Positions 171-35,652 of a stretch of DNA of 64,000 bases are shown here, in pieces (positions within the stretch are counted from its first letter, which is position 1; each line of letters begins with the position of its first letter). The notes beneath the pieces are model-generated. The model did not search any database. It saw only the letters and a program-made list of their open reading frames with translations, and was not told the DNA's origin. The position numbers and the translations under genes are program-made. Origin of the DNA: an uncultured bacterium (GTDB lineage Bacteria; Vulcanimicrobiota; Xenobia; Xenobiales; Xenobiaceae); contig CAKTUZ010000012.1 of assembly GCA_934621605.1 (NCBI GenBank), positions 12,074 through 76,073 on the forward strand, in the 5' to 3' direction.

Positions 171-1673
171 ATGAACAATGATACTGTCAATCTCCTTGCT
201 TCATATGTCGAAGCCTTATATCCCATTATCTATATCAACCACTTTGACTTCAAAGTTATTGATGACATTATTGCTAGTATTGCTGGCGATAGGAAAATTT
301 TTGAATACAATAATGGCTTAGGCTCTGTCGATTTTAAGACTAAATCGGCTATGTCGGCTATGCAAGAATGTGGCTTAACTCAATTCTTGAATGATGTCAA
401 AGACGAGGGCTACGAGCAGAATACGCTCATTGTCCTTAAGGATGTCCACAATCAACTGGACGATTCGGCAGTTATTTCTTTATTGAAATATATTGCCGAG
501 CGCAACTTGTATAACGATGAGTATAGCGCTTCTATTTTCATTGTCTCTAGTAAGCTTCATATTCCCGAAGAATTGGAAGATCTTATTACCGTTTTTGAAA
601 TACCTTTGCCGGACGATTCGGAAATTCGCAATATTATCTTGGAATTTGCTCAAGACTTAGATATTGATATTGCCGAGGACGTCTTAAACGAAATTACTAT
701 TTCCTTTAAAGGCTTAAATGAATTTCAAATTAAACAAATTCTCAATTTAGCCTATCAAGAAGGCGGTTGCTTGGACTTTGACGATAAGCAACTGATTTTC
801 CGCGAGAAAGAGCAATTGGTTAAAAAGGCCGGTTTATTAGAGATGATTTTGGTTCGTGAAGATATCAATGATATTGGCGGACTGGAAAACTTAAAAGATT
901 GGCTGGGCAAGAAAGAGCGTATTTTCAACCAGTTGGACAAGGCTATTAAGTTCGGAGTAGATATTCCCAAAGGCATGATGATTGTAGGTATGCCCGGTTG
1001 CGGTAAGAGTTTGGCCGCTAAAGCTACAGCTAAGCTATTTAAAGTGCCGCTGGTTAGGCTCGATGTGGGACGCTTATTGGGTAAGTATATCGGCGAATCG
1101 GAAGAGAATATGAGGCGAGCTTTGAAGTTAGCTGAAGCTATTAGCCCTTGCGTACTTTGGATCGACGAATTGGAAAAGGCCTTCTCCGGGATTGGCTCTA
1201 CTGGTGGCGGCAGCGACGTCACTACGCGCTTATTTGGTCAGTTCTTAACTTGGATGCAAGAAAAGGAAAATACTGTCTTTATTGTGGCTACTGCTAACGA
1301 TATTTCTCGGATTCCTCCGGAATTTTTGCGCAAAGGCCGCTTCGACGAGCTTTTCTATGTAGATTTCCCCAATAACGAAGAGCGCAAGAAAATTATAGAA
1401 ATTCACCTTAAGAAGCGCGGCAAATGGAATAGGGACTTGGACATTATCTCTGTTGTCAAAGATACCGATGGCTATAGCGGAGCCGATTTGGAAGCTATCG
1501 TTAAAGACGCCGTAGAAAGTTGCTTTGTAGAGGGAAGAAAGCAAATGACTACTGATGATCTTAAGAAAGCTCAGAAAAGTATCAAGTCTATTTCTAGTAC
1601 TCTTTCTACGCGTATTAAGCAAATAAAAGAAGCGGTTAAAGATATGGATCTTAAGCCAGCTTCTAAGAAATAA
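171..1673 (+). CDS. AAA+ ATPase of the classic clade. The N-terminal ~250 aa look like a degenerate AAA-like domain, followed by an active AAA module.
   Basis: Walker A GMPGCGKS and Walker [10 protein letters not shown], with a second region of homology carrying Arg residues ([24 protein letters not shown]). [11 protein letters not shown] linker precedes the AAA module. RBS TAGGAG lies 11 nt upstream of the ATG. Confidence 0.8.
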
Positions 1674-1737
1674 AGTAGCGTGGAATTTAGCTTTGCGTTT
1701 TAGGCTTTGGGTAGCGATAAGGTAGGTAGATAAAAAA

Positions 1738-9391: not shown

Positions 9392-9394
9392 CTT

Positions 9395-9721
9395 TTAAAG
9401 CACTTTCGTTGTCGTATCGGGACTGTAAGCTTTGAAAATTTGCTCAAAGTTGGTAGCTAAGCTGTCATTGAAAAGAGAACTATCGCGCAAAACAGCATAA
9501 ATAGGCGTTTCTTTGGCAATAGCGGTAACTACCTCTTCAGTAATATTAGGCTCAAAGCAAGCGATTAAATAATTACCGTTAACTTTAAAAACTTTGTGGC
9601 CGGCAATATCGACAGTTTCTATAGGCGAAGAAAGCTCCAAGCTAAGTTCGAGCATAACTTGGAAAAGCAAGTCCTCGGCGCTGCGATCGTCTTTAACGTT
9701 ATCGATTAGCTCATCTCTGTC
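9395..9721 (-). pseudogene. mod: Type III R-M Mod methyltransferase, C-terminal ~109 codons only.
   Basis: Minus-strand frame reads DNVKDDRSAEDLLFQVMLELSLELSSPIE...NFEQIFKAYSPDTTTKVL, matching the conserved C-terminal tail of Mod proteins. The frame is closed by a stop at 9722-9724, so no N-terminal MTase domain remains. Confidence 0.65.
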
Positions 9722-9807
9722 CTAAAAAATTAGCTGCTAACTGGAATACTTATAAAGATAACTACGTTAACAATCCTATTTCCGGCGATCGTCTCAATTA
9801 TGATGTA

Positions 9808-12117: not shown

Positions 12118-12120
12118 AAA

Positions 12121-12828
12121 ATGGCAGAGGAGATTGGCAATATGTGGAACTTTCCGCCGGAAACAAAATTAGCTGCCACAAAAGCTAATGTATTTAAAGG
12201 AATGTACGAGCGATTTAATAACAGTTTGTCTATGGCGCAAAGAAGCTTGAAAAGAACTTTTAAGCGACAAATAAAAGATATACTTTGGCTCAACAAATTG
12301 GCAGCTAATACTTTACACTTAGAAAGAGAACAGCAGGCTAGGGAAATACAAGTATTTACCATTGACTTAATTGAACCTGATTTACATAGAGATATTCTTC
12401 AGCAACTGGACAGAATTGTACCTTATTACATTTTGTTTATCTTGCGCTATCAAAATAGGCGTCAGGCTATTATAGCTTATAAAGAATTTGACGAAGAAGG
12501 CAATGTATCTAAAGTTGACCCTTACTTTGGGACAGGCTGGCTAGCTGAAACAGAATCTCCATTTGAATTTAAGGCAGCTTCTTCTATAGAAGGAGTATAC
12601 ACTAATATTATACGCCAAGTAGCTGGGCCGACTTTAAGTTATTTTGATACTTCACGCTCTTTAAAAGAAAATATAGAAATTCAAACTCAACTGAAATTTC
12701 TCCAAGCACAAATAGATAATCTCAATCAAAAGATACGCAGAGAAAAGCAACCCAAAGAAAAACACAGACTGTTCGCTTGCAAAAAAGAATTTGAGGAGCA
12801 AAAGCGCCATTTCATTATCAACTTATAA
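12121..12828 (+). CDS. DUF4391-like protein.
   Basis: 235-aa ORF that starts 4 nt after the helicase stop, suggesting translational coupling. The family assignment is from memory of DUF4391 proteins encoded downstream of methylase-helicase pairs and is hedged. Confidence 0.5.
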   Translation: MAEEIGNMWNFPPETKLAATKANVFKGMYERFNNSLSMAQRSLKRTFKRQIKDILWLNKLAANTLHLEREQQAREIQVFTIDLIEPDLHRDILQQLDRIVPYYILFILRYQNRRQAIIAYKEFDEEGNVSKVDPYFGTGWLAETESPFEFKAASSIEGVYTNIIRQVAGPTLSYFDTSRSLKENIEIQTQLKFLQAQIDNLNQKIRREKQPKEKHRLFACKKEFEEQKRHFIINL

Positions 12829-19474: not shown

Positions 19475-20614
19475 ATGAAGCAGATGGTTGCCACAGCTAA
19501 AATCCAAATATCTGTAGATATGGATAGTAAAATTTTGCTTGACGAAACCATGTCTGCCTATTCTGCTGCCTGCAACTATGTTTCTGACTATGTATTCCGC
19601 ACTCACGACTTAAAACAGTTTTCTCTTAACAAAGCTCTATATTCAATACTTCGAGAAAAGTTTAGTCTTAAATCACAAATGGCTCAATCTGTTTTAAAAA
19701 CTGTAGTTGCCAGATATAAGACCATTTTGGAAAATCAGAAAAAGTGGATTAGACCATGTTTCAAGAGGCCACAATACGATCTTGTATGGAATAGAGACTA
19801 TTCTCTTACCAGGAGCTGTTTTTCAGTAAACACGCTAAAGGGTCGTGTTAAACTGTCTTATTTTGCTAAAGGTATGTCTAAATATTTTGACCATACTATT
19901 TATAAATTTGGTACTGCCAAACTTGTAAATAAACGCGGTAAGTATTTTTTACATATCGCTGTTACTTACGATATTGAAGAAGTTAGACTCTCTGAGATCT
20001 GCAACATTGTTGGCATTGATAGAGGTATTAACTTTGTTGTTGCTACTTACAACAGTCAGCACAGATCTGATTTTGTGAATGGCAGAATTATAAAACAAAA
20101 ACGTGCCAACTATTCAAAACTTCGTAAAGAATTACAAATGCGTCAAACTCCGTCGGCAAGACGTAGACTTAAAGCTATTGGTTCACGAGAAAACCGTTGG
20201 ATGCAAGATGTTAACCACTGTGTATCAAAGGCACTCGTGAAAGCCAATCCCAAGCATACGTTATTTGTCCTTGAAGACTTGTCAGGCGTTCGAAATGCCA
20301 CAGAGCGCGTTAAAACAAAAGATCGCTATGTATCTGTATCGTGGTCATTCTATGACCTTGAACAGAAGCTTATCTACAAAGCTAAACAAAATCAATCTAT
20401 AGTAATTAAGGTTGACCCTCGTTATACAAGCCAGCGTTGTCCGGTGTGTGGGCACATTGAAAAAGCCAATCGCAACAAAAAGACACATCTGTTTAGCTGT
20501 AAAAGCTGTGGCTACAAATCAAATGATGATCGTGTTGGAGCGATGAATCTGTATCACATGGGGGTAAACTATCTTAGAGATAGTCAAGTACCTGATACAG
20601 TTACAGTAGAGTAA
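19475..20614 (+). CDS. tnpB: TnpB (IS605 OrfB family RuvC-like RNA-guided nuclease).
   Basis: 379 aa with the C-terminal zinc finger CPVCGH...CKSCGY and RuvC-like segments GIDRGINF...DRVGAMN. RBS AAAGGAG. Confidence 0.85.
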   Translation: MKQMVATAKIQISVDMDSKILLDETMSAYSAACNYVSDYVFRTHDLKQFSLNKALYSILREKFSLKSQMAQSVLKTVVARYKTILENQKKWIRPCFKRPQYDLVWNRDYSLTRSCFSVNTLKGRVKLSYFAKGMSKYFDHTIYKFGTAKLVNKRGKYFLHIAVTYDIEEVRLSEICNIVGIDRGINFVVATYNSQHRSDFVNGRIIKQKRANYSKLRKELQMRQTPSARRRLKAIGSRENRWMQDVNHCVSKALVKANPKHTLFVLEDLSGVRNATERVKTKDRYVSVSWSFYDLEQKLIYKAKQNQSIVIKVDPRYTSQRCPVCGHIEKANRNKKTHLFSCKSCGYKSNDDRVGAMNLYHMGVNYLRDSQVPDTVTVE

Positions 20615-22952: not shown

Positions 22953-23399
22953 CTACTCTCTATCCCTACTAATATTATGCTCCACTATATGTAGCATTTG
23001 CTTAGCATCGTTATGGCCTTGCTTGGCCGCTTTTGCCAGCCATTTTACAGCTTCTGCATCATTGCTTTCTTCTTCCCTTAATGCAAGTATAGCTAACTGA
23101 AATTTAGCTTCTCTTGTAGATTGCTTATAAAGCCCATGACGAATGGCAAGTTCACCCTGATAAAAACGAACGCCAAGCGCAAATTGAGCATCTGCGTTAC
23201 CTAGCTCAGCAGCCCTATGAAAGCATTTTGCAGCCTCATAAAAATCACCTTTATCATAATAAGATGCCCATTGGTATAAATAATAATCTGCTCGTGATGT
23301 TTGTACGCCACAAGCTACACTAGTTAAGCCTAAAATAAGTAGTGTCAGAAGAAAAGCAAACTTGCCAATATTTTTATGTGCAAAGCAGTTAGAAAACAC
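22953..23399 (-). CDS. Sel1-repeat (TPR-like) lipoprotein or secreted protein.
   Basis: Signal peptide with LTSVACG lipobox. Sel1 units FHRAAELGNADAQFALGVRFYQG. Confidence 0.75.
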   Translation of the reverse strand: MFSNCFAHKNIGKFAFLLTLLILGLTSVACGVQTSRADYYLYQWASYYDKGDFYEAAKCFHRAAELGNADAQFALGVRFYQGELAIRHGLYKQSTREAKFQLAILALREEESNDAEAVKWLAKAAKQGHNDAKQMLHIVEHNISRDRE

Positions 23400-23490
23400 T
23401 AGAGACCTTCTTTATATTTCTATAGAAGTAAGAGCCAATGGCTCTTTCATTTTCGTTTTTAATTCACACTATTATACGAAAACTTAAATG

Positions 23491-24540
23491 TTACGGCTCT
23501 CCATACGGCCCTTCAATAAGGCCCTCTGTAGCTGAGAATTTAGGATAGCCTTCTTCAACATAATCATCTCTGTGATTGCCTTTACACTGAAGCGTGTATG
23601 TATCAGGGCAAGTATTATAGTCATAATCATAATAACAATCTGGAGAAGTCGGACAAGTCGGCATTTTCTCAAGATAAGGAGGCTGGCCATCAGGAAGACG
23701 ATCTAATAAAACTTCTAAGTTCTGAGGATAACGTCCAGCATTGTCTACGGCATACATTTCACAGGCAGTGCCTATAATTTTTAAATTATTTTTACACGTT
23801 ACAAGATTGTCTTGTGCCTGCTCAAAATCACTACTATTACTTCCATAAATTAATTTCTCGGAACAGGTAAACTTAGGATAACCTTGCTCTCTATTCATTT
23901 TTTTATGAGAGCCACTACATATTAATTCAAAGTTATTGCCATTGTCAGTAACTTGGTAAAAATAGTTTACGTTATCAGTATTGGGACAGGTTGGCAATTT
24001 CTTAATGTAGGAACGAGTACCACCTGAACCGATTAATTTCTCTAAATTTGGCGGATACTGGCCATCATTATCAGCAGCATACAATTCACACAAAGCGCCT
24101 AGCTCTCTGAGATAGAACTGACATCTGCTCAGAGCTTTATAATCTTCTTCTTCTGAAGTTAAGTCATTTTCTAAACTATTAGAACTATATGTCACATTAT
24201 TACTTACATTGTTATTGGAATAATATTCTTGAGTTGTGCTGTCACTATCAGTTATTTCATTACTATCATTCATAGATATATAACCATCTTCATAGCGGCT
24301 GCTGATATCCGTAATAGGTTCTTTGTTTTCAGATAAACGTGCCTGAAAAACAATCAAAGCAATGAGAATAGCAAAAGCGGCAAAAATTTTAATACCATAA
24401 GAAAGTGAAGCGGCAACAACACAGGCTTTGGATCTTTTTGGCGTTTCGTCTTGATAGCAACTCCAGTGAATAAAGCCTACGTCAGGTACAATAAATGAAA
24501 GAATACATAATTCAATACTTACTTCATCTTGTGTTTTCAT
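23491..24540 (-). CDS. Membrane protein with an N-terminal TM hairpin carrying the PKRSKAC motif, a low-complexity linker and two GspG/pseudopilin-like domains.
   Basis: CELYAADNDGQYPPNLEKL...YIKKLPTCP and CEMYAVDNAGRYPQNLEVL...YLEKMPTCP resemble the T2SS GspG core (xMYxLDNGRYPTTEQGL...YLRRLPKDP). Confidence 0.7.
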   Translation of the reverse strand: MKTQDEVSIELCILSFIVPDVGFIHWSCYQDETPKRSKACVVAASLSYGIKIFAAFAILIALIVFQARLSENKEPITDISSRYEDGYISMNDSNEITDSDSTTQEYYSNNNVSNNVTYSSNSLENDLTSEEEDYKALSRCQFYLRELGALCELYAADNDGQYPPNLEKLIGSGGTRSYIKKLPTCPNTDNVNYFYQVTDNGNNFELICSGSHKKMNREQGYPKFTCSEKLIYGSNSSDFEQAQDNLVTCKNNLKIIGTACEMYAVDNAGRYPQNLEVLLDRLPDGQPPYLEKMPTCPTSPDCYYDYDYNTCPDTYTLQCKGNHRDDYVEEGYPKFSATEGLIEGPYGEP

Positions 24541-24589
24541 GATTATTCCTTATTTACGAACAAATATAGACAACAAAAAATAATAATAT

Positions 24590-25777
24590 TTAATTTAGGG
24601 CATTATCATTTAAGAAACGTTTCGCTTCATCGTTACCATGTTCGCTGGCTTTATTGAACCATTCCGTAGCTTCTGCTTTATCTTGTTTAACTCCATCACC
24701 GTTATAATAAATTTTACCTAAAGTAAACTCAGCTTCGGCTCCAGCATTAATTTCTTCACTTCCCAAAAACAGCACCCCCTCTGTATGTTTGGCAACCATA
24801 CGGAACCATTTTATAGCTTCTGTTGTATCTCGCTTAACTCCGTCGCCGTTATAATAGATTTTACCCAAACTAAGCTGAGCCTGAGCATTATTACCATTAT
24901 CATCATGATCGCTTTGAGCAGCAGCTTTACGGAACCACTTTCTGGCTTTGTTTTTATCTTGGACTATCCCATCGCCATTGTAACAAATTTCACCCAAACT
25001 AAATTCTGCTCTCCCACTAGAAGAGCTATAACTATCGTAATGAAGCTTATTCCATTCAAGAGCCTTGCGATACCATTGTATAGCCATAGCTTTATCTTGA
25101 TCTGCACCAATACCGTAATAATAGCAATCGCCCAACGCAACTCGTGCATCACCATGCTCGGAAACTCGACAATCAGTTTTTCTTGCACTTTGACGAAGCT
25201 TTGCAAAATATTTGGTTGCTTCTCTTCTGTTTTGCTGCACACCGTCCCCATTCCAATAGCATTTTAATAACATAAACTGAGCAGCAGTAGATTGATGGGG
25301 CTCTCTGCTGCAGTATTCCGTAAAAGTAAAAGCATTATGGAAATCAGCGATGGTATCTCCCTTTTCAGCAGCCTCACGGAACCATTTTATAGCTTCCTTC
25401 TTATTTTGCTTTACCGCCTCACCATACCAACAAAACTTCCCAACTGAATATTGAGCATTTGCATCTCCTTTATCAGCTTGCATAATAAGATACTTTAGAG
25501 CTTCAGTTTTATTAGGTTCAATTTGGTTGCCATCAACATCTTTTCCGTTATAACACATAGTAAATGCGTGATAGAGCATACCTCTAGCAGAACCAGTATC
25601 TCCATATTGTATGATGCTTTCACGTAAGCGAGAAGCTTCATCGTCGTAGTTATCAGCTAGAGCTATCTCAACAGAGCAAAATGACAAAGCGCCAACAAAC
25701 ATTAAGGCGGTCAAAGGTAAAGTAATATTATCAATAAATCTAGTTTTACCAACGTTGAACATATGCTTACTCTCCAT
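24590..25777 (-). CDS. Sel1-repeat protein, secreted.
   Basis: N-terminal signal/TM segment, then at least 7 Sel1 units (e.g. EAIKWFREAAEKGD, QYSVGKFCWYGEAVKQN). Confidence 0.8.
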   Translation of the reverse strand: MESKHMFNVGKTRFIDNITLPLTALMFVGALSFCSVEIALADNYDDEASRLRESIIQYGDTGSARGMLYHAFTMCYNGKDVDGNQIEPNKTEALKYLIMQADKGDANAQYSVGKFCWYGEAVKQNKKEAIKWFREAAEKGDTIADFHNAFTFTEYCSREPHQSTAAQFMLLKCYWNGDGVQQNRREATKYFAKLRQSARKTDCRVSEHGDARVALGDCYYYGIGADQDKAMAIQWYRKALEWNKLHYDSYSSSSGRAEFSLGEICYNGDGIVQDKNKARKWFRKAAAQSDHDDNGNNAQAQLSLGKIYYNGDGVKRDTTEAIKWFRMVAKHTEGVLFLGSEEINAGAEAEFTLGKIYYNGDGVKQDKAEATEWFNKASEHGNDEAKRFLNDNALN

Positions 25778-25879
25778 CCATACAATTAAATGTTTTTATT
25801 TAGCTATCAACGGCGAATACCAATTTAATGCATTGTGTTCGCTTAAAATTAGGACAATAGGTTTTTACTAATATGAAAA

Positions 25880-26653
25880 CTAACCACAGCAGCTGCCAGC
25901 CACACAAAAAATCACAATTGCAGCAATTATACAACCGCAGCAGCTTGTCCATTCGTCTTCTTTATCTTCCTTGTCTTCTTTTTGTCTGCTCTTTATGCTC
26001 TCTTTTGCTGAATTAATCAATAATTTTTTTAACTCTTTTTCTTTAAGATTAAACTCTTGAAGAACTTCTTTTAACCCTTCTTCTTTAAACTCTTGAAGAA
26101 CTTCTTTTAACTCTTTTTCTTTAAGGTTGAACTCTTGAAGGGCTTCTTTCAACTCTTTTTCTTTAAGATTAAACTCTTGAAGGACTTTTTTTAGCCATTC
26201 TTCTTTGCACATTTGAAAGAGTTCTTCTTCTGCTTCATCATCAGGGGAAATTTCTTCTTCGTATTCCTCTACCAGTTTTTTATACTTTTGAAGAATTTTC
26301 TTTAACTCTTCTTTAAACTCTTGGAGAACTTCTTTTATGTCATCGTTCCAATCCCCATATTTAGCTTTTAACGCGTCAACTTTATCTTCAACGCCAATAT
26401 CCTCTTCTAATGCTTTATCAACATAAAGGTTAAACTTTTCCTTATCGCCACTCTTTCCATATCTTTCTGCTAAAGCTACATAATTTTCTGCCCTACGTCG
26501 AGCTGCAGCGGTATCATCAACAGTAACTTGGCCGCTTACTTTTGTGCGCTCACCAATTAAAATCTTTTTGCCACAATAAGAACAAAAAGCTACATCTCTA
26601 TCTTCTGGCAAATCTAAATCAGCTGCGCAATTGGGACAAGTCAAATTTATCAT
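25880..26653 (-). CDS. Zinc-ribbon protein with a coiled-coil repeat region and a C-terminal Cys-rich TM anchor (paralog B).
   Basis: Starts MINLTCPNCAADLDLPEDRDVAFCSYCGKKI, with AGGAG 7 nt upstream of the ATG at 26653. Repeats LQEFNLKEKELKE and C-terminal WTSCCGCIIAAIVIFCVAGSCCG. Confidence 0.7.
   Translation of the reverse strand: MINLTCPNCAADLDLPEDRDVAFCSYCGKKILIGERTKVSGQVTVDDTAAARRRAENYVALAERYGKSGDKEKFNLYVDKALEEDIGVEDKVDALKAKYGDWNDDIKEVLQEFKEELKKILQKYKKLVEEYEEEISPDDEAEEELFQMCKEEWLKKVLQEFNLKEKELKEALQEFNLKEKELKEVLQEFKEEGLKEVLQEFNLKEKELKKLLINSAKESIKSRQKEDKEDKEDEWTSCCGCIIAAIVIFCVAGSCCG
26020..26230 (-). repeat. Tandem ~33-39-bp repeats encoding LKEVLQEFNLKEKELKE units.
   Basis: Visible as repeated cttgaag(a/g)acttcttttaac... 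blocks. Confidence 0.7.
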
Positions 26654-26721
26654 ATCAATACTCCTACAAAAAAATATGAAACTTCCAAGAAACAAGCCTG
26701 TCTATAAAGAAACAAGCCTGT

Positions 26722-27078
26722 CTACACGCGGGAAGATATTGTATATAATATTAGGTACAACAAAGAGCAGAAAATTGAAACAATAAGTAGTCTAAAAGAA
26801 GTTAGAGCAGCGGTACCGCAAGCTTTAGCCCTTTTGGGCAACTCTTTACGATAACAGAGCCAATATACTAATCCTACTGGAGGTATATAGTACGAAAGGA
26901 TGGCCAGCCAAACACTTATTTCATCTGCTGGGTTTGAATTTGCTTCATCCTCAGTAGATAATTCATCATCAAAAACTTCATTAGAATCAGGTAGCTTATC
27001 TATCTTCTGGCTTTCGCTAAGCTTATGTTGGTCGGCTGTCTGCTGCTTATTCATAGCCCTAGTACGCAACTTACTCAT
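26722..27078 (-). CDS. Small membrane protein with the conserved PKRAKAC TM-hairpin motif.
   Basis: ILSYYIPPVGLVYWLCYRKELPKRAKACGTAA aligns with the N-terminus of 23491..24540 (ILSFIVPDVGFIHWSCYQDETPKRSKACVVAA). Confidence 0.5.
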   Translation of the reverse strand: MSKLRTRAMNKQQTADQHKLSESQKIDKLPDSNEVFDDELSTEDEANSNPADEISVWLAILSYYIPPVGLVYWLCYRKELPKRAKACGTAALTSFRLLIVSIFCSLLYLILYTISSRV

Positions 27079-27155
27079 AGTTATTCAACCTCCTTACCTG
27101 TGTTTGAGAAATAAGACCAAAGTGTAAATTTTCAGTCTATGCCTTAGTTCAGTAA

Positions 27156-27929
27156 TTACCAGTTTTTCAGTATCTCTTTAGCCTTTTCGTTCCCTGACTC
27201 TGCTGCTCGTTTCGCCCATTTAAAAGCTTCTGTGACGTTACGCTCTACACCGTCACCATTTGCGTAACTCACTGCCAAATAAAATTGAGCATCTGCGTTC
27301 CCTGACTCCGCTGCTCGTTTCAACCATTTAAAAGACTCTGCGACGTTACGCTCTACACCGTCACCAGTTACGTAACGCAATGCCAAATAAAATTGAGCAT
27401 CTGCGTTACCTGACTCCGCTGCTCGTTTCGCCCATCTAAAAGCTTCTGCGTCGTTACGCTCCACACCATCACCATTTTCGTAACGCATTGCCCAATAAAA
27501 TTGAGCATCTGCGTTCCCTGACTCCGCTGCTCGTTTCAACCATTTCAAAGCTTCTGCGTCGTTACGCTCTACACCGTCACCTTGTGCATAACTCACTGCC
27601 AAATAAAATTGAGCATCTGCGTTCCCTGACTCCGCTGCTCGTTTCATCCATTTCAAAGACTCTGCGACGTTACGCTCTACGCCCCAACCTTTTACGTAAC
27701 TCACTGCTAAACAAAATTGAGCATTTGCGTTACCTATCTCAGCAGATTCGCGGAAATATTGTACAGCTCTATTAAAATCTCCATCGCTAAAACATTGACG
27801 ACCACGTTCAAATAAATAATCTGCTCGTGCTGGCGAGTTGCTCCACGCTAAGTTAGTAAAATTTAAAATTAAGAGTAGTACTGAAATAAAAGTAAATTTA
27901 GCAGCATTATTAAACCTAAAAACTTCCAT
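27156..27929 (-). CDS. Sel1-repeat secreted protein with near-identical tandem units.
   Basis: Start MEVFRF at 27929 with a signal peptide. Six or more 36-aa units of the form AAESGNADAQFYLAVSYAQGDGVERNDAEALKWLKR. Confidence 0.8.
   Translation of the reverse strand: MEVFRFNNAAKFTFISVLLLILNFTNLAWSNSPARADYLFERGRQCFSDGDFNRAVQYFRESAEIGNANAQFCLAVSYVKGWGVERNVAESLKWMKRAAESGNADAQFYLAVSYAQGDGVERNDAEALKWLKRAAESGNADAQFYWAMRYENGDGVERNDAEAFRWAKRAAESGNADAQFYLALRYVTGDGVERNVAESFKWLKRAAESGNADAQFYLAVSYANGDGVERNVTEAFKWAKRAAESGNEKAKEILKNW
27190..27740 (-). repeat. 108-bp tandem repeat (Sel1 unit), about 5 copies at >85% identity.
   Basis: Repeated ...ctgactccgctgctcgtttc(g/a)(c/a)ccatt(t/c)aaaag(c/a)(t/c)tctgcg... 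blocks. Confidence 0.85.
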
Positions 27930-27948
27930 TTTTATCGCCTCACTCTCT

Positions 27949-28851
27949 TTAAGAAGCCATACTAACAATAATTAGAATAATGAATATGATTACCGATATT
28001 ACAGCCACACAACATGATGCCATACCGTAAATTTCACGTATAGTTCCAAATAAAAAACTTCCCTCTACATCTTCTTCTGATGTGTCGTCGCCATAAAGTT
28101 TTAGTTTGTATATAGTACGAAGTATAACTTTAACTTCAGCTTCAGAAGACTTAATAAACTCTTTTCGTTTATTAAAGCCATACACTAACAAAAATATTAC
28201 ACTAATTGCAGACACAGTAAATGAAACTTGCTCATCAGTTCCTAATACTGCCGATATAAGTAAACCCAGAATAAGTAACAATAATAATGCGCCTAGAAAG
28301 GGTATAGGGGTGAGAAATTTTTCCCAATTATAGTCTCTGTTTTTATTATCATTCCAATAGGCTACAACGCCATACCTAAGCTGTTCTTTTCTAACCTTTA
28401 ACCTATGACGTAGTTCCTTTATAGTTTCAGTTGCCAAAGCTTTTAATTTTATACGAATACAAGGCTCAGATGACAAAGCTTGACTTATATCGCTATCTAT
28501 AAGCGAATATTGTCCGTCTTCCAAGCGCTTGTGAATATCATCGGAAAGCTTTTTGTAAGTTTTACTTACATTTGACTTCAATTCATTAATTTTAGGAAGT
28601 AAGCTCTCGTCTTCTGTTAAAGCTTGTCGCAAACAGTGCTCATACATCTCTTTGTCACCAGCACTGGCATATTTTTTTGCCAACTCAAAAAAGTTACCTT
28701 TTTCAGTTGGTTTAGTAACAGTAACTTGACCGCTTACTTTTGTACGCTCACCAATTAGGATCTTTTTGCCACAATAAGAACAAAAAGCTACATCTCTATC
28801 TTCTGGCAAATCTAAGTTAGCTGCGCAGTTGGGACAAGTCAAATTTATCAT
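27949..28851 (-). CDS. Zinc-ribbon protein with a C-terminal TM anchor (paralog A).
   Basis: Starts MINLTCPNCAANLDLPEDRDVAFCSYCGKKILIGERTKVSGQVTV, with AAGGAG upstream. The C-terminal end carries two TM segments and MASCCVAVISVIIFIILIIVSMAS. Confidence 0.7.
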   Translation of the reverse strand: MINLTCPNCAANLDLPEDRDVAFCSYCGKKILIGERTKVSGQVTVTKPTEKGNFFELAKKYASAGDKEMYEHCLRQALTEDESLLPKINELKSNVSKTYKKLSDDIHKRLEDGQYSLIDSDISQALSSEPCIRIKLKALATETIKELRHRLKVRKEQLRYGVVAYWNDNKNRDYNWEKFLTPIPFLGALLLLLILGLLISAVLGTDEQVSFTVSAISVIFLLVYGFNKRKEFIKSSEAEVKVILRTIYKLKLYGDDTSEEDVEGSFLFGTIREIYGMASCCVAVISVIIFIILIIVSMAS

Positions 28852-28945
28852 ATCAATCTCCTTGCAAAATATGGAACTTTCATAAATAAGTCTGTCTATG
28901 TGCGGGAAGATATTTAGGTACAAACAAAGAGCAGAAAAAAGTATT

Positions 28946-29827
28946 CTATTTTGACAATTCTTTTAATCTGGTTTTTGCACCAACATGCCATTTTTTGGCA
29001 GCTAATCCATACCATTTTTTGGCTTCATTGATGTTTTTCTTAACACCATCACCTTTGTAATAAAGCTCACCTAAAAGAAACTGTGCTTCAGCTGTATCAT
29101 CGCAAAAATCATCATCCCGAGCTTCAGCAACTTCACGCCATAGTCTTCTAGCTTCTGTTTTATTCTGGTCTACAAAAATACCATAGTAAAAGCATTTACC
29201 TAATACAAATTTGTATTCTGGAAATTGGTCACCATATTCACTATAATTTCTAATTATTTCATTAAACCATTTTCTAGATTCTTCTAGGTCTTGTTCTACA
29301 ACATGACCATACCAATAGCATTTGCATAACATAAATTGAGCATCTGCATGATGCAATTCAGGAGGATAACGTCCCTCTAAGTTACCTCTACCAAGAAACA
29401 CCCCTTCCTCAGCAGCTCTGCGATACCACTCGAGAGCTTCTGCCGTATCTTGCTTAACACCATCGCCTTTCCAGTACATTTCAGCTAACTTAAATTGCGC
29501 ATCAGCAACGGTTTGCCCCTTCGTTCCAATATGCTCTTTCGCGGCCTTACGATACCACTTTAGAGCCTTGCCTTTATCTTGTGGCACATACCAACCTTTA
29601 AAATGCCCCTTAGAATAAATATCACCAAGCATAACCATGGCAAAAACTTCGCCATTTTCAGCTGCTTTACTAATTTTACTCACACTTGTATAGTTCTGGA
29701 GTACACATCCCATACAAGCTTTTGCTTCATCATTGCCTATAGTTGCACTGAATATAACACAAAAAGTTGTTACAGCTGATATAGCAATAACCTTTAAAAC
29801 TGTTTTAAGTATATGACTTTGAAACAC
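28946..29827 (-). CDS. Sel1-repeat secreted protein.
   Basis: Signal peptide, then Sel1 units (KALKWYRKAAKEH, EALEWYRRAAEEG). Confidence 0.8.
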   Translation of the reverse strand: MFQSHILKTVLKVIAISAVTTFCVIFSATIGNDEAKACMGCVLQNYTSVSKISKAAENGEVFAMVMLGDIYSKGHFKGWYVPQDKGKALKWYRKAAKEHIGTKGQTVADAQFKLAEMYWKGDGVKQDTAEALEWYRRAAEEGVFLGRGNLEGRYPPELHHADAQFMLCKCYWYGHVVEQDLEESRKWFNEIIRNYSEYGDQFPEYKFVLGKCFYYGIFVDQNKTEARRLWREVAEARDDDFCDDTAEAQFLLGELYYKGDGVKKNINEAKKWYGLAAKKWHVGAKTRLKELSK

Positions 29828-29902
29828 TAGTTAACTCCTTTATTTTTATTTGCTGCCCTGATTCAAACTAGTTAGTAACATGCTTGTCAAAATAAGTGAC
29901 AA

Positions 29903-31537
29903 CTAATTAGTAATAGTGCAAAATGGACGACCCCTTCTCAATTTTTCGTGATTTCCGTTACATTTTATTTTGTAGCTATTATTGTCATAAGATATAGAAT
30001 ACTGACTATCGTTAGTCGGACAAGTTAACATATTATTGCTTATATAAGTGGGTGTGAGAGCTGATAAATTGTAAGGGTAATTTCCATTACTATTGCGATA
30101 CAGTTCACAAGCAGCAGCTAATTCTTTTAAATTACTAACACATTTTTCATAGTCGTAAATTTGTCTCTGCATTACTTTACCTTCAGCAGATCCTGTTTGA
30201 GACATCAAGCTAAAAGCTTCCAAAGCCGACTTTTTATCTTCAAATTTATTATAAAGTAAACATCCCAACCTAGACATTGCCTCAATATTGCCAAGATTAG
30301 CAGCCTTGATAAAATATGAGACAGCCTGTTCAAGGGAATATCTGGAATTTATGAACTTTCCACCGTCATACGTATTTTCGTAACCTTGTGCTATCTTGAA
30401 AAATAATTCTTCTTTCTTGAACATTGGATCTTCATAACAACCAAGTTCTGAAGCCATTTCCCATGCACCAACTGCATTAAATTCAGAACGACTATCATGG
30501 TAATGCTCACCAAGTATATAACATACATTACCATCTAAATAATCACTCGTTTTAGATTGTTCATATGCTTGTTTAAACAGCGCTATAGATTTATCATAAT
30601 CCTTTTTAACACCATCTCCATAGTAAAAATACCACCCCAACCCAATTTTCGCATCACAGTCACCTTGGTTTGCTTTTTGAATATAAAAGCGCATAACGTC
30701 AGTAGTTAGTCCAGCCTCACTAGCCATTTGAAGATAAACACGTCCCAATTTTTTATTTTTTTTGACACCATTTCCCTCAAAATAGCAACGTCCCAAATAC
30801 AATTGCGATTCAGCATCCAAATGTACAGCCGTTTCAGCAATTGATTTAGCTTTTTTTACCTCATTATTTTCTTCATAAGAGCAAGCTATAGCAGATAATT
30901 CATCATTTTCTTCCCAAACTGCCTGGTTAAAAAATCCATCTCCACTGTATGTCAATGTCATATTGTCACCAATATCGGAAGCTTGGCTATTACTGTCCTG
31001 ATTTACAGTAGTAGAGCTACTATTGTCTTTACTTGTTTCAGCGGCAGAATTTTCTTCGTTAGTTTTATTCTCTACGGCAGAGTTATTGTCAGAACTATTA
31101 TCTTCATTGCTCTGGCTTTCTGCTGCCGGAGTGCTGTCATCAGAGGATGTGCTTGGCTCTTGATATTGAATAGTCGTTGTAGGAGTATCCTTATGTTTGC
31201 CTCCGTCAGCTTCTTGCTTAAGCTTATGACTAACAACAGATACTGCTATGGCAAAAATAACAGAAACTACGATTATAATATTTTTAGCACTAGGATTTTT
31301 AACTTTGCTGGCCAGAGAAAACCCAGCGGTAACTATAGCTATCGCTGCTATAGGCCAGAAATATACAGTAATCCAAGTAGCAATGAAGGCAAAAATTGCA
31401 CAGCCAATAATTTCTTCTTTAAGTGCCTTCATTAAGTTTATATATATAACATTGAAGCATTTATGATAAACAACGAAGCCTAAGATCATGTAAAACAGAA
31501 AAATTACAAGACAGACACCACTCATAGCTTGAGACAT
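29903..31537 (-). CDS. Multidomain membrane protein with N-terminal TM segments (KVKNPSAKN motif), a Ser/Asn/Asp-rich linker, Sel1 repeats and a C-terminal GspG-like domain.
   Basis: C-terminus ACELYRNSNGNYPYNLSALTPTYISNNMLTCPTND...KCNGNH. Sel1 units LYLGRCYFEGNGVKKN. Confidence 0.75.
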   Translation of the reverse strand: MSQAMSGVCLVIFLFYMILGFVVYHKCFNVIYINLMKALKEEIIGCAIFAFIATWITVYFWPIAAIAIVTAGFSLASKVKNPSAKNIIIVVSVIFAIAVSVVSHKLKQEADGGKHKDTPTTTIQYQEPSTSSDDSTPAAESQSNEDNSSDNNSAVENKTNEENSAAETSKDNSSSTTVNQDSNSQASDIGDNMTLTYSGDGFFNQAVWEENDELSAIACSYEENNEVKKAKSIAETAVHLDAESQLYLGRCYFEGNGVKKNKKLGRVYLQMASEAGLTTDVMRFYIQKANQGDCDAKIGLGWYFYYGDGVKKDYDKSIALFKQAYEQSKTSDYLDGNVCYILGEHYHDSRSEFNAVGAWEMASELGCYEDPMFKKEELFFKIAQGYENTYDGGKFINSRYSLEQAVSYFIKAANLGNIEAMSRLGCLLYNKFEDKKSALEAFSLMSQTGSAEGKVMQRQIYDYEKCVSNLKELAAACELYRNSNGNYPYNLSALTPTYISNNMLTCPTNDSQYSISYDNNSYKIKCNGNHEKLRRGRPFCTITN

Positions 31538-31875
31538 TTCATACTCTCCATCCTCACAACAAACTTTTTATTATCTAATGATCAATTTGAGGATACGCTG
31601 TTTTCCCTAAAAATCGCAGTTTGTCTAATATTGAGCCATAAAGTCACTACTAATTATTTAATAATAATTATCAATATAAGCAAAAATTGATATAGAAACT
31701 ATATGCCCTATTTTGCCGTAAAAACGCATTTATTAGATTGTATTATGTTAAATTTGTAATATTTAAATTAAATAGTAGGAAAAACTAAAAGATCCTCAAA
31801 TTGATCATTAGAGGATCCACTTTAACCTTTTGCGGTATTACTTAGTGCCAGTAGCTTTTTCAATTCCAGTTTAAA

Positions 31876-32925
31876 CTATCGCAAATTACGATCTGCCATT
31901 AAAGTGTTAGCCTTGTGTATGGATTTAGAAATGGCCACTTTATTGATCGTATTGATACCATCTTCACGCTCACTTTTAATTACAAGTTCTACTTTACACA
32001 TATTGTATAATAGACCAACCAAAAGCACGGTATTTTCAATAGCTAGGCGTTCGTGCTCAGTGTAATTATTCCAATCTGTACGGCCAGTATTAACTAAGTG
32101 CTCAAGAGTACTTAAATGTTTTTTATATATGTTCTTCACCTCTACTAAGGTACGGAGATACTCATCGCTAGTTTGGCGCAAATCAATTAAATAATCGCAA
32201 ATTTTATTGATTTTTTCTTCAGCTCTAAGCATTTGTGAGTAGGCTTCGTCAGCTTTATCACACATTTGGTCGCCGCTAAAAGCAAAAATTATGCCGCCAA
32301 CCAGTAATCCTACGCCTAAAGTAGCACCTCCCAAAACGGCAGTGCCTAAGGCCATTCCGCCTCCTCCAGCTGTCAAAGAACCACCGCCTAAAAATGCTAA
32401 AATGGCATTAGTGGCCGCCGCACCGCTCAATCCGGAAATGGCCGTACCAGTAGAAGCAACACCTACGGCTGTAACCGCTGCCGTAGTGGCACCAGAAGCG
32501 GCAACAGCTCCCGCAGTACCTACTGCTGCTCCACCTAAGCCACCTAAAATAACTCCAGCTCCCACTGAAACTTTCTTTAAATCTTCCCGATTATATTTGG
32601 GCAAATCTAAATTATTTCGCTCGTAAGTAGCAAAATGAGGTCTGTTTTTGATCTGTTCAAAAAGATCGGAAAATTTTTCAAAGCTTTGAAGAATGTGCAA
32701 TTCCAATTTGCCCAGTTTATCCATACGCTCATTGGTAGCTGTGCTTTCATTCTTAAAACGCCGCTCATTATTTTCGTGACGAGCTTTAGCGCTTTGCATA
32801 GTATCATTGGCTTCCTTCATTTTAGAAGCGCCATGTATGGCAGCTCCAGCTCCGACAACTCCGGCAGTAGCCGCAGCACCTCCAAGAAGCCAGGGAACAG
32901 CTGCAACAAGAAATGGCAAGGGCAT
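31876..32925 (-). CDS. Glycine-zipper membrane protein.
   Basis: Two long GxxxG/AxxxG tracts (VGAGVILGGLGGAAVGTAGAVAASGA...GGGGMALGTAVLGGATLGVGLLVGGIIFAF), then a helical C-terminal region. RBS AAAGGAG. Confidence 0.65.
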   Translation of the reverse strand: MPLPFLVAAVPWLLGGAAATAGVVGAGAAIHGASKMKEANDTMQSAKARHENNERRFKNESTATNERMDKLGKLELHILQSFEKFSDLFEQIKNRPHFATYERNNLDLPKYNREDLKKVSVGAGVILGGLGGAAVGTAGAVAASGATTAAVTAVGVASTGTAISGLSGAAATNAILAFLGGGSLTAGGGGMALGTAVLGGATLGVGLLVGGIIFAFSGDQMCDKADEAYSQMLRAEEKINKICDYLIDLRQTSDEYLRTLVEVKNIYKKHLSTLEHLVNTGRTDWNNYTEHERLAIENTVLLVGLLYNMCKVELVIKSEREDGINTINKVAISKSIHKANTLMADRNLR

Positions 32926-33020: not shown

Positions 33021-33281
33021 TTATGTGCAAGCCTTTTTAACTCGTTTTAACTCTCGACAGCTCTGATAGTTTATTTTCAAATATTCATCATAACTTAAAA
33101 TCTCTTTGAAAAATGCCTCGTAGCATTCATCAACTCGACATAGCAGCGGCCTTTGTTCATAAATAGAACACAAATTGCCGTCTAGATATTTGCATATTCC
33201 GTCTCCGGTATGCAATTTTGCATATAACGGTGAGCGGCTTAAATTTCGACAACATAGGCCACAGCGATCACACTTGAACAT
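33021..33281 (-). CDS. YkgJ-family cysteine-cluster (CxxCxxCC) protein.
   Basis: MFKCDRCGLCCRNL...CSIYEQRPLLCR. The ATG lies 1 nt after the upstream gene's stop, suggesting coupling. Confidence 0.65.
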   Translation of the reverse strand: MFKCDRCGLCCRNLSRSPLYAKLHTGDGICKYLDGNLCSIYEQRPLLCRVDECYEAFFKEILSYDEYLKINYQSCRELKRVKKACT

Positions 33282-33282
33282 C

Positions 33283-34569
33283 TTAGCAAAACTCCAAGCG
33301 AGAAGATTTATCTTGCATAAAGCTATTAAAGCTTCCCTGATAAGGCAAAGGAATGCCCAAATTGTGATACTCATTTTTTAATATGCTAGTTAAATCGGCT
33401 TCACTGCTGGCACAATTTATACGTTCAAGCAATTGTTTATAAGCGCTTGTTTCTTGCTTAAACCGTTCATAATCTATCTTTTCAAGTTCGGAAAGATATT
33501 CATCTAACGCCTCATTTATTCTAATATAAGCGTCCAACTGTTTTTGTAACGGAAGACTAATTCCTGAACGGATACAAATTTCCTTAAGGACCAATAATGA
33601 AAATTTGTACCAAGCAATTAAATTCAAACGCAAAAAGAAAGCTAAGCAATTGCCACCAGAGCGTATGTAAGCGTCAGCTCCATCCATTAAACATAAAGTT
33701 CCCTGGCCAATAAGCAACATGATACGCAAGTCATCATGTTGTATACTAGGAATACATTCTTTTAATGGTCTTTTATGATAAAAGTAATGCTTAAGTGCCC
33801 AAATAAGCTTTATAGATAAATCGCACAGAACTACGGGAACGGCCATAGTCAGTCCCCATCTGGCATCGTATCCGGCTTGGAAAACTTTTGTAGCTAAAGT
33901 AGCTAAAGTGTTCCTATCTTGACCTACTTGAAAAGAACCAAAATCGCAAAGTTGAAATAATTCATAAAAAGGAATAACTACACCGCTACCGCGTCCACCC
34001 TGCCCAACGGAACCAGAACTGCCGGCTATATCAGACATAATATGTCCAAGCCAATTGACAAAGCCGCAAAATAATTTAGAGACAAAATTGCTGCCTCTAA
34101 GCTCAAAAGTATCAGTTTTTATAGTTATAAGCTTGCCATCACTCAAAAAAGTGGAAGTTGAAGTAAACTGGTTAAGTATAGAGAAGAATAATCCCACAAT
34201 ATCTGGCGAATGGGCCAGCGATTTCATGTGGTGATTTTTGGAAGACATATTTAAGGCTCCACCCACATCAGCCGTATGTCTTTGGTCGTAATTTACCGGA
34301 AATTTTTTCTCTAAAAATCCTATAGCGCTAGCTTCTTTGCCATTATCTTTCCAACCGCACATTTTGGCAAAGCCCATAACCGCTTTGTCAACTTGGCTAT
34401 CGGTCCAAGTTTGGAGTTTGCTATCACCGGGCGCTCCCACTAAAAATACATCTATTAGGCCCGCTACAGCACCACAGCCAACAGCAACTAAATAATCATA
34501 TCTATCACATTTATCTTGATAGAAGAAAGGTTTAACTGATGTTTTGTTAATTAAATCGCCGATATCCAC
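33283..34569 (-). CDS. Hypothetical protein of 428 aa, not recognised, with a Gly/Ser-rich segment GSSGSVGQGGRGSG.
   Basis: Long ORF cotranscribed between RhuM and YkgJ. Confidence 0.6.
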   Translation of the reverse strand: MDIGDLINKTSVKPFFYQDKCDRYDYLVAVGCGAVAGLIDVFLVGAPGDSKLQTWTDSQVDKAVMGFAKMCGWKDNGKEASAIGFLEKKFPVNYDQRHTADVGGALNMSSKNHHMKSLAHSPDIVGLFFSILNQFTSTSTFLSDGKLITIKTDTFELRGSNFVSKLFCGFVNWLGHIMSDIAGSSGSVGQGGRGSGVVIPFYELFQLCDFGSFQVGQDRNTLATLATKVFQAGYDARWGLTMAVPVVLCDLSIKLIWALKHYFYHKRPLKECIPSIQHDDLRIMLLIGQGTLCLMDGADAYIRSGGNCLAFFLRLNLIAWYKFSLLVLKEICIRSGISLPLQKQLDAYIRINEALDEYLSELEKIDYERFKQETSAYKQLLERINCASSEADLTSILKNEYHNLGIPLPYQGSFNSFMQDKSSRLEFC

Positions 34570-34623: not shown

Positions 34624-35652
34624 TTAGTCGTGTTTTTCTTTCGTGCTGGCGACAAGACGGTCAAAATCACTTTGATACAAACGATCTTGAATGACACGAT
34701 ACTGCTCAAATTCACTTTCCGCAAAAGCTTTTGCGATTGCGGCTGTGACTTCACCCTTGTTTTGTAAGACTTCTGCATCGTTGAATTGCAGGAACGAATC
34801 CAGTTTGGAAGCCCAATCTGCCATCGTCATGGGAATATGCCGCCGTGCCTGTCTTGTAGCGTAGTCCAAATACATTGTAACGATCTCGTTAAGCTCCTGC
34901 ATTTCACCTTTGGATAAGTAATTCTTTGCAATCGACACATCTGCTTTTACGATTTTTCCATTAGGAGCATTGCGCCATGAGGTTAATCCCATATGTTCTT
35001 TTGCGTGGTCTGCTCTTGCTACAATGACCTCCGCTGCGGTATTTCCATGGACGGCATAATGCATCTTATTTTGCACTGTAGCAAAGAAATCTTTCGTAAT
35101 TTGGCTATCAAAGGAATAATCGATGGCAGTAGCATAGATGTCTGTAATCTTTTGATAGAAACGACGCTCACTGGCTCGAATCTCTTGTATCTCAGAAATT
35201 AAGTGATTAAAATAATCTTCATCGAAAATTTGACCGTTAATTAATCTGCTCTTATCTAAAACATACCCTTGCTTCGCAAAGGTATCCAGCACTTTTGTTG
35301 CCCACTGCCTGAATTGTGTTGCCCTGCCAGAGTTGACACGGTAACCAACGGCAATTATGGCAGATAGCGAATAAAACTTATATTGATATGTTTTTCCGTT
35401 ATCCGCAACTTGTGCAAAATTTGCACAAGTTGATTCCTCGGACAATTCGCCGCTTTCATAGATGTTTTTCAAATGTCTTGTGACAACACTTCTATCTATA
35501 TCGAAAAGCTGTCCAATTACTTTTTGTGTCAGCCACACATCGTGATTCTGAACACGAACTTCAATACCATCCTCGTGGGCATCCTTTGTAAATATAAGAA
35601 AATCCACCGTACTGTTTCGGATCTGCAATTTTGTATTCTTATTTTCAGCCAT
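34624..35652 (-). CDS. RhuM-family (Fic/DOC-related virulence protein RhuM) protein.
   Basis: N-terminal region MAENKNT...IRNSTVDFLIFTKDAHEDGIEVRVQNHDVWLTQKVIGQLFDIDRSVVTRHLKNIY is characteristic of RhuM. Confidence 0.75.
   Translation of the reverse strand: MAENKNTKLQIRNSTVDFLIFTKDAHEDGIEVRVQNHDVWLTQKVIGQLFDIDRSVVTRHLKNIYESGELSEESTCANFAQVADNGKTYQYKFYSLSAIIAVGYRVNSGRATQFRQWATKVLDTFAKQGYVLDKSRLINGQIFDEDYFNHLISEIQEIRASERRFYQKITDIYATAIDYSFDSQITKDFFATVQNKMHYAVHGNTAAEVIVARADHAKEHMGLTSWRNAPNGKIVKADVSIAKNYLSKGEMQELNEIVTMYLDYATRQARRHIPMTMADWASKLDSFLQFNDAEVLQNKGEVTAAIAKAFAESEFEQYRVIQDRLYQSDFDRLVASTKEKHD

Follow-up and report, generated by a model that had tools for sequence, protein, structure and literature searches.

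Nine head-to-tail genes on the minus strand of a 64-kb stretch of DNA (the window: 64,000 nucleotides of contig CAKTUZ010000012.1, from an uncultured bacterium of the Candidatus Bruticola lineage) occupy positions 22953-31537 and encode membrane-anchored and exported proteins, two of which carry type IV pilin heads that have lost the parts needed to form filaments. The most notable point is that this leaderless pilin head appears to be a common, undescribed extracytoplasmic module. The cluster as a whole may constitute an inner-membrane-anchored periplasmic binding or sensing assembly, a putative role suggested by sequence relationships, whose chances of being right we place at about even. It is built from known folds in an arrangement that does not match a described system. 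The earlier note on this DNA, made from its letters alone, had not recognized the combination either, and no described system combining these parts was found in PADLOC, NCBIfam, Pfam, PHROGs or the literature searched; NCBIfam, PHROGs and PADLOC returned nothing meaningful for the zinc-ribbon (ZnR), hairpin or head proteins.

The genes are preceded by AGGAG-type ribosome-binding sites, are separated by gaps of 19-117 bp, and encode four predicted exported Sel1-repeat proteins, two membrane-anchored ZnR proteins, two proteins with a PKRxKAC hairpin and one fusion of four transmembrane (TM) segments with Sel1 repeats (4-TM/Sel1). In transcription order and in coordinates of the window, the first gene (29903..31537) encodes a protein of 544 amino acids (aa) with four N-terminal hydrophobic segments, an S/N/D/E-rich linker of ~100 aa, Sel1 repeats and a C-terminal leaderless head, as delineated by hydropathy and hidden Markov models (HMMs). 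It is followed by a 293-aa, putatively exported Sel1-repeat protein (28946..29827; five PF08238 stretches, hydrophobic segment at residues 6-32), a 300-aa ZnR protein (27949..28851) whose N-terminal CPNC...CSYC motif is followed by a helical stretch, two hydrophobic segments in the middle and, at the C-terminus, a TM anchor (SCC), and a 257-aa, putatively exported Sel1 protein made of five near-identical 36-aa units (27156..27929; PF08238 and TRF). Downstream lie a 118-aa protein (26722..27078), where a disordered acidic N-terminal tail precedes the hairpin (about 26746-26928, hairpin HMM), a 257-aa ZnR protein (25880..26653) with the same ZnR cassette, LKEKELKE coiled-coil repeats and a Cys-rich C-terminal TM anchor, and a 395-aa, putatively exported Sel1-repeat protein (24590..25777; six PF08238 stretches), which becomes 390 aa if started at 25762, the length given by the gene call of the source contig. 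The last two products are a 349-aa protein (23491..24540) composed of a hairpin (about 24349-24537), an S/N/D/E-rich linker of ~65 aa and two tandem leaderless type IV pilin heads (about 23836-24138 and 23506-23817, head HMM), and a 148-aa short Sel1-like protein (22953..23399) recognized by its paralogy to the 27156-27929 product.

Where the earlier note spoke of eleven same-strand genes forming a tandemly reiterated three-component module, the common strand is confirmed, but only nine genes belong to these types, and a further gene within the range given there (31876-32925) is unrelated. The order ZnR-Sel1-hairpin does occur twice, for which ‘tandemly reiterated’ is an overstatement; on its own, two occurrences of the same order amount to a 1-in-6 coincidence. 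Simple duplication of a three-gene unit is not supported, because the Sel1 genes of the two ‘triads’ are not mutual closest paralogues: 28946-29827 pairs with 24590-25777, and 27156-27929 with 22953-23399. The array is lineage-specific and probably co-transcribed. No terminator-like site was found between the cluster genes on the minus strand, in promoter and terminator scans that performed no better than on shuffled sequence. HMMs for the head, the hairpin and the Sel1 unit had no matches in the window outside the cluster, and no Rfam family reached threshold anywhere in it. At 26687-26724, a perfect 20-nt direct repeat (AAGAAACAAGCCTGTCTATA, 1.9 copies) extends over the spacer that separates the 118-aa hairpin gene from the second ZnR gene, and over the stop codon of the former.

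Three pilin-like domains are present, two in the 23491-24540 product and one in the 29903-31537 product (about 29906-30154; residues 462-540, head HMM E 1e-22). They share ~40% identity and the pattern C...C..Y..N.G.YP.NL..L...Y...TCP...Y...C.G.H. The likeness to GspG and other pseudopilins proposed in the earlier note is upheld by Pfam on an orthologue, by homologues with prepilin leaders and by the predicted fold. The Pfam model T2SSG (gathering cut-off 21 bits) scores 15.6 and 12.6 on the window heads and 25.7 on a 79% identical orthologue (P0004). A head-domain profile finds pilins with a GFTLIELM leader (P0195, P0196, P0200 and P0201; E 1e-22 to 1e-29), of which P0195 and P0200 are 49-50% identical to head 2 of the 349-aa protein. 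P0201 is annotated as a Candidatus Xenobia type II secretion protein, and P0195 is the pilin gene of a PilB-PilT-PilC-pilin-PilD-PilM-PilN-PilO-secretin cluster; its matches to the NCBIfam GspG and PilA models fall below the cut-offs, and TIGR02532 matches P0195 and not the window proteins. In the AlphaFold2 (AF2) model of the isolated head, computed from a 15-sequence alignment, the domain starts at an amphipathic alpha1-C helix lying on an antiparallel beta-sheet; for the full 349-aa protein (8-sequence alignment) the pLDDT was 35, and only the isolated-head model is usable. The domain is, by this convergence of profiles, assigned as the head of a type IV pilin or pseudopilin.

The domains are leaderless, as had been claimed. 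The prepilin leader motif G|(F/M)T(L)xE occurs nowhere in the 23491-24540 and 29903-31537 products, and what precedes the heads is an S/N/D/E-rich linker or Sel1 repeats in place of a hydrophobic alpha1-N. It is well established in pilin biology that a protein without leader and alpha1-N is neither processed by PilD nor polymerized; the window heads should therefore be neither processed nor able to polymerize. No T2SSE, T2SSF, PilD or secretin gene is found among the annotated open reading frames (ORFs) of the window. Set against the major type IV pilins and GspG/EpsG/XcpT (PF08334, TIGR01710), the window heads lack the leader, Glu5 and alpha1-N, stand in tandem or after Sel1 repeats, are anchored by a hairpin or a 4-TM domain, and have no assembly machinery nearby. 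The cluster proteins are thus not pilins with respect to leader, alpha1-N and machinery, and keep the pilin head fold in the predicted model. Another protein with a pilin-like fold is Bd0109 of Bdellovibrio (PMC3818213). The hit-locus proteins Bd0108/Bd0109 offer an analogy only: the repeats of Bd0109 are of the YD type instead of Sel1, and it is not partnered by ZnR or hairpin proteins.

Leaderless heads are apparently in common use. An exhaustive HMMER search with an orthologue profile, over representative clusters at 50% identity (E<=1e-3), retrieved 1677 representative clusters, some of them with the head on Ser/Thr kinases, and all of the best 150 match this domain only. A word-indexed homologue search with the full protein found only seven close orthologues, and a plasmid tblastn search with the head had no matches. 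Among the best 149 head homologues, the motif scan detected a prepilin leader in two and a lipobox-like site in 25, and 11 have an N-terminal CxxC...CxxC ribbon followed by a TM segment and then heads. Pfam matches in 109 head homologues comprise T2SSG in 31 (E<=1e-3, best 6.5e-13), DUF1559 in 22, DUF3352 in 16, and protein kinase and zinc ribbon in four each. Given these varied anchors and cytoplasmic partners, the head looks like a general extracytoplasmic module. One secreted leaderless head (P0203; L039 8001-8420) is encoded within a glycosyltransferase/GT87/polysaccharide-deacetylase cluster, and both it and the ZnR homologue P0206, discussed below, occur in envelope-polysaccharide contexts.

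The PKRxKAC hairpin had been attributed to three proteins of the cluster. It is present in the 26722-27078 and 23491-24540 products (HMM E 1e-32 to 1e-33; 1.6e-32 for the former) and absent from the 544-aa protein (29903-31537), which has no hairpin HMM match, 17% identity and a different, 4-TM N-terminus instead. A profile of the ZnR N-terminus joined to the hairpin retrieved the Bruticola orthologues, and its hairpin part also retrieved proteins of 89-214 aa (P0222-P0228) in which a PF13240 ZnR precedes the hairpin (...GLCILSFLIPLFGIIYW..K.KETPKRAKACGITA...). A metagenome scan with the hairpin (13 loci in all, most on short contigs) yielded nine further ZnR-hairpin loci in organisms of 25-62% GC, the ZnR being complete in eight and the ninth ORF being cut at the contig end; no relatives were found in a scan of viral contigs. 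The annotation of this family is limited to ‘zinc ribbon domain-containing protein’. Its members, among them P0222-P0228 and Bacillus mycoides plasmid genes, have in common with the window proteins the hairpin ...LCILSFLIPxxGxIYW...ETPKRAKACG... (HMM E 1e-33 to 1e-37), and the window hairpin proteins can be placed in the family by the hairpin alone. Whereas the ZnR-hairpin family combines both domains in a single chain, whose gene stands alone beside an XRE regulator, the window hairpin proteins begin with a disordered tail or directly with the hairpin and have no ZnR on the same polypeptide; one carries pilin heads, and the window's different-looking ZnR is encoded on neighboring genes. In unrelated bacteria (L013 5691-6330 and L014 5667-6645), a ZnR-hairpin gene stands beside a divergent gene for a 68-aa HTH_3 (XRE-family) protein, which suggests a conserved two-gene unit. 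A CD225/IFITM-like relationship, considered for the hairpin in view of its re-entrant segment, basic loop and TM helix, was dropped, as no such Pfam match was obtained even at E<=10.

The two ZnR proteins do possess the common N-terminus and Cys-rich TM anchor ascribed to them. The 27949-28851 and 25880-26653 products are identical at 44 of their 45 N-terminal residues, and both terminate in a Cys-containing TM segment. Their duplicated 5′ segment, also noticed before, has a sharp boundary: codons 1-45 differ by five synonymous and one non-synonymous changes, similarity collapses at codon 46, and the shared cassette (18 nt upstream plus codons 1-45; copy 1 28717..28869, copy 2 26519-26671, minus strand) forms a DNA repeat of 153 nt at 92% identity. 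Pfam gives weak Zn_ribbon_3/DUF7575 matches (E ~2e-3) for the 27949-28851 product, and the coiled coil of the second ZnR protein (25880-26653) is built from 42-nt repeats at 26027-26193. The TM anchors (25880-25950 and 27949-28040) are unusually rich in cysteine (WTSCCGCIIAAIVIFCVAGSCCG; ASCCVAVISVIIF...), with an SCC motif retained in orthologues. A genome-contig scan with the ZnR alignment, run with very specific patterns (MINLTCPN, DLPEDRDV), returned one metagenome-assembled genome and says little about distant relatives.

A resemblance of the cluster to zinc-finger anti-sigma factors and Ser/Thr kinase sensors lies in their plan, which combines a membrane anchor with a zinc-binding or kinase domain in the cytoplasm and a binding domain outside it, and leaderless pilin heads do occur elsewhere on kinases and on ZnR-TM proteins. 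In contrast to such single-pass TM sensors, the cluster has no sigma factor, kinase or zf-HC2 domain, and its cytoplasmic and periplasmic parts are on separate proteins. A reading of the ZnR proteins as anti-sigma factors was rejected, given the lack of a sigma factor and of a zf-HC2 match; neither zf-HC2 nor the sigma-70 family is matched in the cluster or its neighbors.

Sel1 repeats are strongly supported by PF08238 (gathering cut-off 30.7 bits) in four proteins, as expected: 172 bits (E 7.5e-52) for 24590-25777, 175 bits (8.9e-53) for 27156-27929, 145 bits (3.6e-43) for 28946-29827 and 64 bits (1.2e-17) for 29903-31537. The match is marginal for the 22953-23399 product, which at 27.3 bits stays below the cut-off and is a paralogue of 27156-27929 (E 1.7e-20). 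The near-identical 108-bp units described earlier correspond to 5.1 copies at 88% identity (27188-27735, TRF). A single hydrophobic segment is found at the N-terminus of each Sel1 protein, and hydropathy and inspection also reveal AxA-like or lipobox-like sites; by eye, the N-terminus of the 22953-23399 product (LTSVAC) matches the PROSITE lipoprotein pattern. By repeat content these can be classed as ordinary Sel1 proteins. Hcp of Helicobacter pylori and LpnE and EnhC of Legionella are Sel1-like repeat (SLR) proteins. The cluster proteins resemble them in their 36-aa Sel1 units behind a putative signal peptide, in their host-associated bacterium and in copy-number variation, but differ in that their genes are interleaved with ZnR, hairpin and pilin-head genes, one Sel1 protein being fused to a pilin head.

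Links between the components are documented both within and outside the window. In the cluster itself, hairpin and heads share a chain in the 23491-24540 product, as do Sel1 repeats and a head in the 29903-31537 product. Elsewhere, the 195-aa protein P0082 unites ZnR, hairpin (HMM E 6.5e-14) and head in one chain. In a second lineage (L016, L037 and L038; GC 35-37%), a stand-alone hairpin protein of 63 aa, which shares 52% identity with the 118-aa protein, is encoded after a head lipoprotein with 48% BLASTP identity to window head 2; in L037, a convergent gene for a 600-aa TM+Sel1 protein comes 741 bp downstream. Hairpin, head and Sel1 genes thus co-localize in a second lineage, and ZnR, hairpin and head in one polypeptide, the relation on which the earlier note had made its proposal depend, and these hairpin-head-Sel1 neighborhoods and fusions are, from sequence, independent associations. 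A conserved trio ahead of a convergent TM+Sel1 gene is seen at L037 2460-3710 and L016 1695-2962, consisting of a 110-aa putative lipoprotein (CPNCG), a 154-aa pilin-head lipoprotein and the 63-aa hairpin protein; in L016, a Transposase_mut element is inserted after the trio, followed by a 1194-aa PP2C-TPR/Sel1 protein and a VWA protein.

Human-gut metagenomes, among them Hadza samples, are the source of the identical contig and of many variants. HpnH of the window groups at 90% identity with proteins assigned to Candidatus Bruticola sp. and to bacterium UBP9_UBA11836. Candidatus Bruticola belongs to the class Xenobia of the phylum Vulcanimicrobiota/Eremiobacterota, and no paper on its biology was found in the literature searched. 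Type IV pili are present in the phylum's sole cultured member, whose envelope comprises an inner membrane, thin peptidoglycan and an outer membrane with lipopolysaccharide (LPS; PMC9758169). As this cultured member is diderm, a periplasm in Bruticola is a reasonable inference.

Gene order is conserved in every strain examined, with strains differing by up to 30% at the protein level. The locus is fast-changing, as anticipated: strains vary in Sel1 gene presence, in repeat number and in the length of the ZnR protein. The 257-aa Sel1 protein (27156-27929) has 230 or 344 aa in other strains, or is missing, and the terminal Sel1 gene (22953-23399) is absent in some (L021-L023). The length of the second ZnR protein (25880-26653) varies between 121 and 275 aa as coiled-coil repeats are gained and lost (P0211, P0219), one strain's allele is devoid of the TM anchor, and the 544-aa gene is truncated in one strain. 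In comparison with strain L003, dN/dS is 0.15-0.69 for most cluster genes and 0.03-0.16 in the flanks, and the terminal Sel1 gene encodes an identical protein. Since every gene has a dN/dS below 1, the genes are maintained by selection, under relaxed or partly diversifying pressure. Along the locus dS is patchy (0.01-0.43), which suggests recombination.

The sequences show which domains are present, that the filament-forming parts are lost, that fusions and neighborhoods link the components, that strains vary and that selection is purifying. The topology of the proposed assembly and the physical association of its products, like any ligand or output, are putative. The ZnR and coiled coil would be cytoplasmic, held at the inner membrane by the C-terminal TM anchor; the ZnR proteins would be mostly cytoplasmic. 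The hairpin would consist of a re-entrant segment, a basic cytoplasmic loop (PKRxKAC) and a single genuine TM helix, so oriented that the N-terminus lies in the cytoplasm and the C-terminus on the other side of the membrane. Its first segment is weakly hydrophobic with a conserved P-x-x-G, and its PKRxKAC loop is basic; these features and the ZnR-hairpin-head fusion are the grounds for a re-entrant hairpin. Heads should be extracytoplasmic, because they have conserved cysteines and exist elsewhere in lipoprotein and pilin forms, and the ZnR-hairpin-head fusion consequently needs an odd number of membrane crossings. The leaderless heads would be tethered in the periplasm by the hairpin or the 4-TM anchor via long disordered linkers, and the Sel1 solenoids would be exported via Sec. 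Heads and Sel1 solenoids could together present an outward protein-binding surface, with the ZnR/coiled-coil proteins as the cytoplasmic face. During evolution of the Bruticola lineage, a single-chain ZnR-hairpin-head architecture may have been split into separate genes and duplicated, with Sel1 added.

Several observations weigh against such an assembly. The full arrangement is seen in one genus-level lineage (Bruticola) only, and individual Sel1 genes are dispensable in some strains. ZnR-hairpin genes elsewhere are lone genes; the two with long flanks adjoin the divergent 68-aa XRE-type regulator and have no Sel1 or head genes within 6-8 kb. A homologue of the ZnR/coiled-coil/TM protein with 56% identity (P0206; L011 10001-10891) has Bac_transf/DegT/Polysacc_synt_2 genes as its neighbors, and the surrounding 10 kb contain neither Sel1 nor hairpin nor head genes; it probably comes from a different organism than the window (GC 42% vs 38.5%). 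An hhalign comparison of the window ZnR with hairpin- and head-fused ZnRs aligned 10 columns, that is one CxxCG knuckle. Membership of the window ZnR in the family of the hairpin-fused ZnRs is for this reason not claimed, and as homology is not established by hhalign, the ZnR link depends on domain class and adjacency. Finally, were the hairpin a plain pair of TM helices starting from the cytoplasmic side, the heads would end up in the cytoplasm.

The same facts lend themselves to a rather unlikely alternative in which the locus has no joint function and is a hotspot of local duplication, repeat slippage and domain shuffling, whose exported Sel1 and small membrane products each act alone, for example as independent periplasmic or surface adaptors. 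Sel1 paralogy that does not follow the proposed triads, Sel1 genes that come and go between strains, changing repeat numbers, the mosaic dS (0.01-0.43 along the locus), the occurrence of components alone elsewhere and a border with variable defence genes are all in keeping with this explanation. It does not readily account for the independent fusions and neighborhoods that join hairpin with head, Sel1 with head, ZnR with hairpin, and ZnR with hairpin and head, nor for a nine-gene order kept across strains up to 30% different in protein, nor for the confinement of these families to the cluster within the window.

Modulation of type IV pili is distinctly improbable. By analogy, membrane-tethered major-pilin heads would act as pilin mimics in the periplasm, partnered by Sel1 proteins, and could control how pili assemble or retract, signal pilin abundance to the cytoplasm or sequester factors that bind the pilus. 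The absence of any pilus gene from the window speaks against this, as do the many unrelated partners of leaderless heads (DUF3352, kinases, CHAT), which suggest a general binding domain and not one specific to pili; moreover, no Bruticola type IV pilus locus or pilin of its own was identified in this analysis. On the other side stand the 50% identity of the heads to the head of a pilin from a complete type IV pilus operon, the use of type IV pili in the phylum (PMC9758169) and the analogy with the pilin-like fold of Bd0109 (PMC3818213). An undescribed anti-phage or superinfection-exclusion system within a defence island, suggested by the neighborhood alone, is the least probable explanation and very unlikely. 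The cluster lies directly downstream of homologues of BnzB and PDC-M09A and of RhuM, with an NgoMIV-type restriction gene in other strains; DrmD-like and PtuA-like genes exist elsewhere in the window; and type IV pili are common phage receptors. Nevertheless, the seven cluster proteins scanned give only weak PADLOC matches (E 1e-4 or worse), located in coiled-coil or TM regions, no hairpin relative was found in viral contigs, PHROG matches are not meaningful, Sec-exported repeat proteins are atypical as defence effectors, and the cluster is fixed in position while the adjoining defence genes vary.

If, as the periplasmic assembly would imply, the parts cooperate, pilin heads would have a second use outside filaments, as binding or sensor domains tethered to the membrane in the periplasm, a use of which no description was found in the literature searched. 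A wider suggestion, tentative and rather doubtful, is that ZnR-hairpin-leaderless head proteins represent an undescribed, widespread class of TM receptors using a domesticated pilin head as ligand-binding domain, the Bruticola locus having been split and amplified with recruitment of Sel1 co-receptors or ligands. At least 1677 clusters would then carry the receptor head, with kinase, zinc-ribbon, DUF3352 or lipoprotein anchors, and an uncultured gut phylum would have a rapidly diversifying apparatus for envelope sensing or adhesion. The locus ties together the uncharacterized, widespread ZnR-hairpin family, pilin heads and Sel1 solenoids, and gives a first look at the envelope biology of gut-associated Eremiobacterota (Xenobia), a lineage that has no cultured member and for which no functional study was found in the literature searched.

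Immediately upstream of the cluster, on the same strand, the gene at 31876..32925 encodes a glycine-zipper membrane protein matching PDC-M09A (PADLOC E 3.8e-35). Its membership in the cluster was rejected on the basis of this match, of its tight constraint (dN/dS 0.04-0.06, vs 0.15-0.69 for most cluster genes), of a 338-bp gap to the next gene and of the BnzB homologue upstream. A small CxxCxxCC (PF03692) protein (33021-33281, minus strand) precedes it, followed on the map by the BnzB (Bunzi) homologue (33283-34569, minus strand), which is matched in PADLOC with 466 bits (E 3.2e-140) over model positions 150-490 only; no BnzA was detected by PADLOC among the neighbors tested, and in other strains the NgoMIV-type restriction gene adjoins the BnzB homologue. 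RhuM is encoded at 34624-35652. Further defence-like genes, at 8780-12828 and 54691-56814, include a ResIII fragment, an SNF2 helicase containing a DrmD-like region, a DUF4391 protein and an ATPase that matches PtuA/Rad50-type models in its N-terminal part.

Other features of the window are an IS605-family TnpB (19475-20614, plus strand; OrfB_IS605 and a Cas12f-like TNB domain) located between biotin genes and the cluster, and, at 171-3564 on the plus strand, an AAA+ ATPase (CDC48/FtsH-like in the ATPase domain only) and after it a 608-aa protein that bears a CFI-box-CTERM sorting-type domain. Hopanoid side-chain genes also occur in this gut-associated Xenobia genome (39600-40601, 41376-44412 and 53222-54652), the set comprising HpnH (DUF3463 radical SAM), a GT21 glycosyltransferase, a PNP_UDP_1 phosphorylase, an epimerase and an HpnJ-like B12 radical SAM protein.

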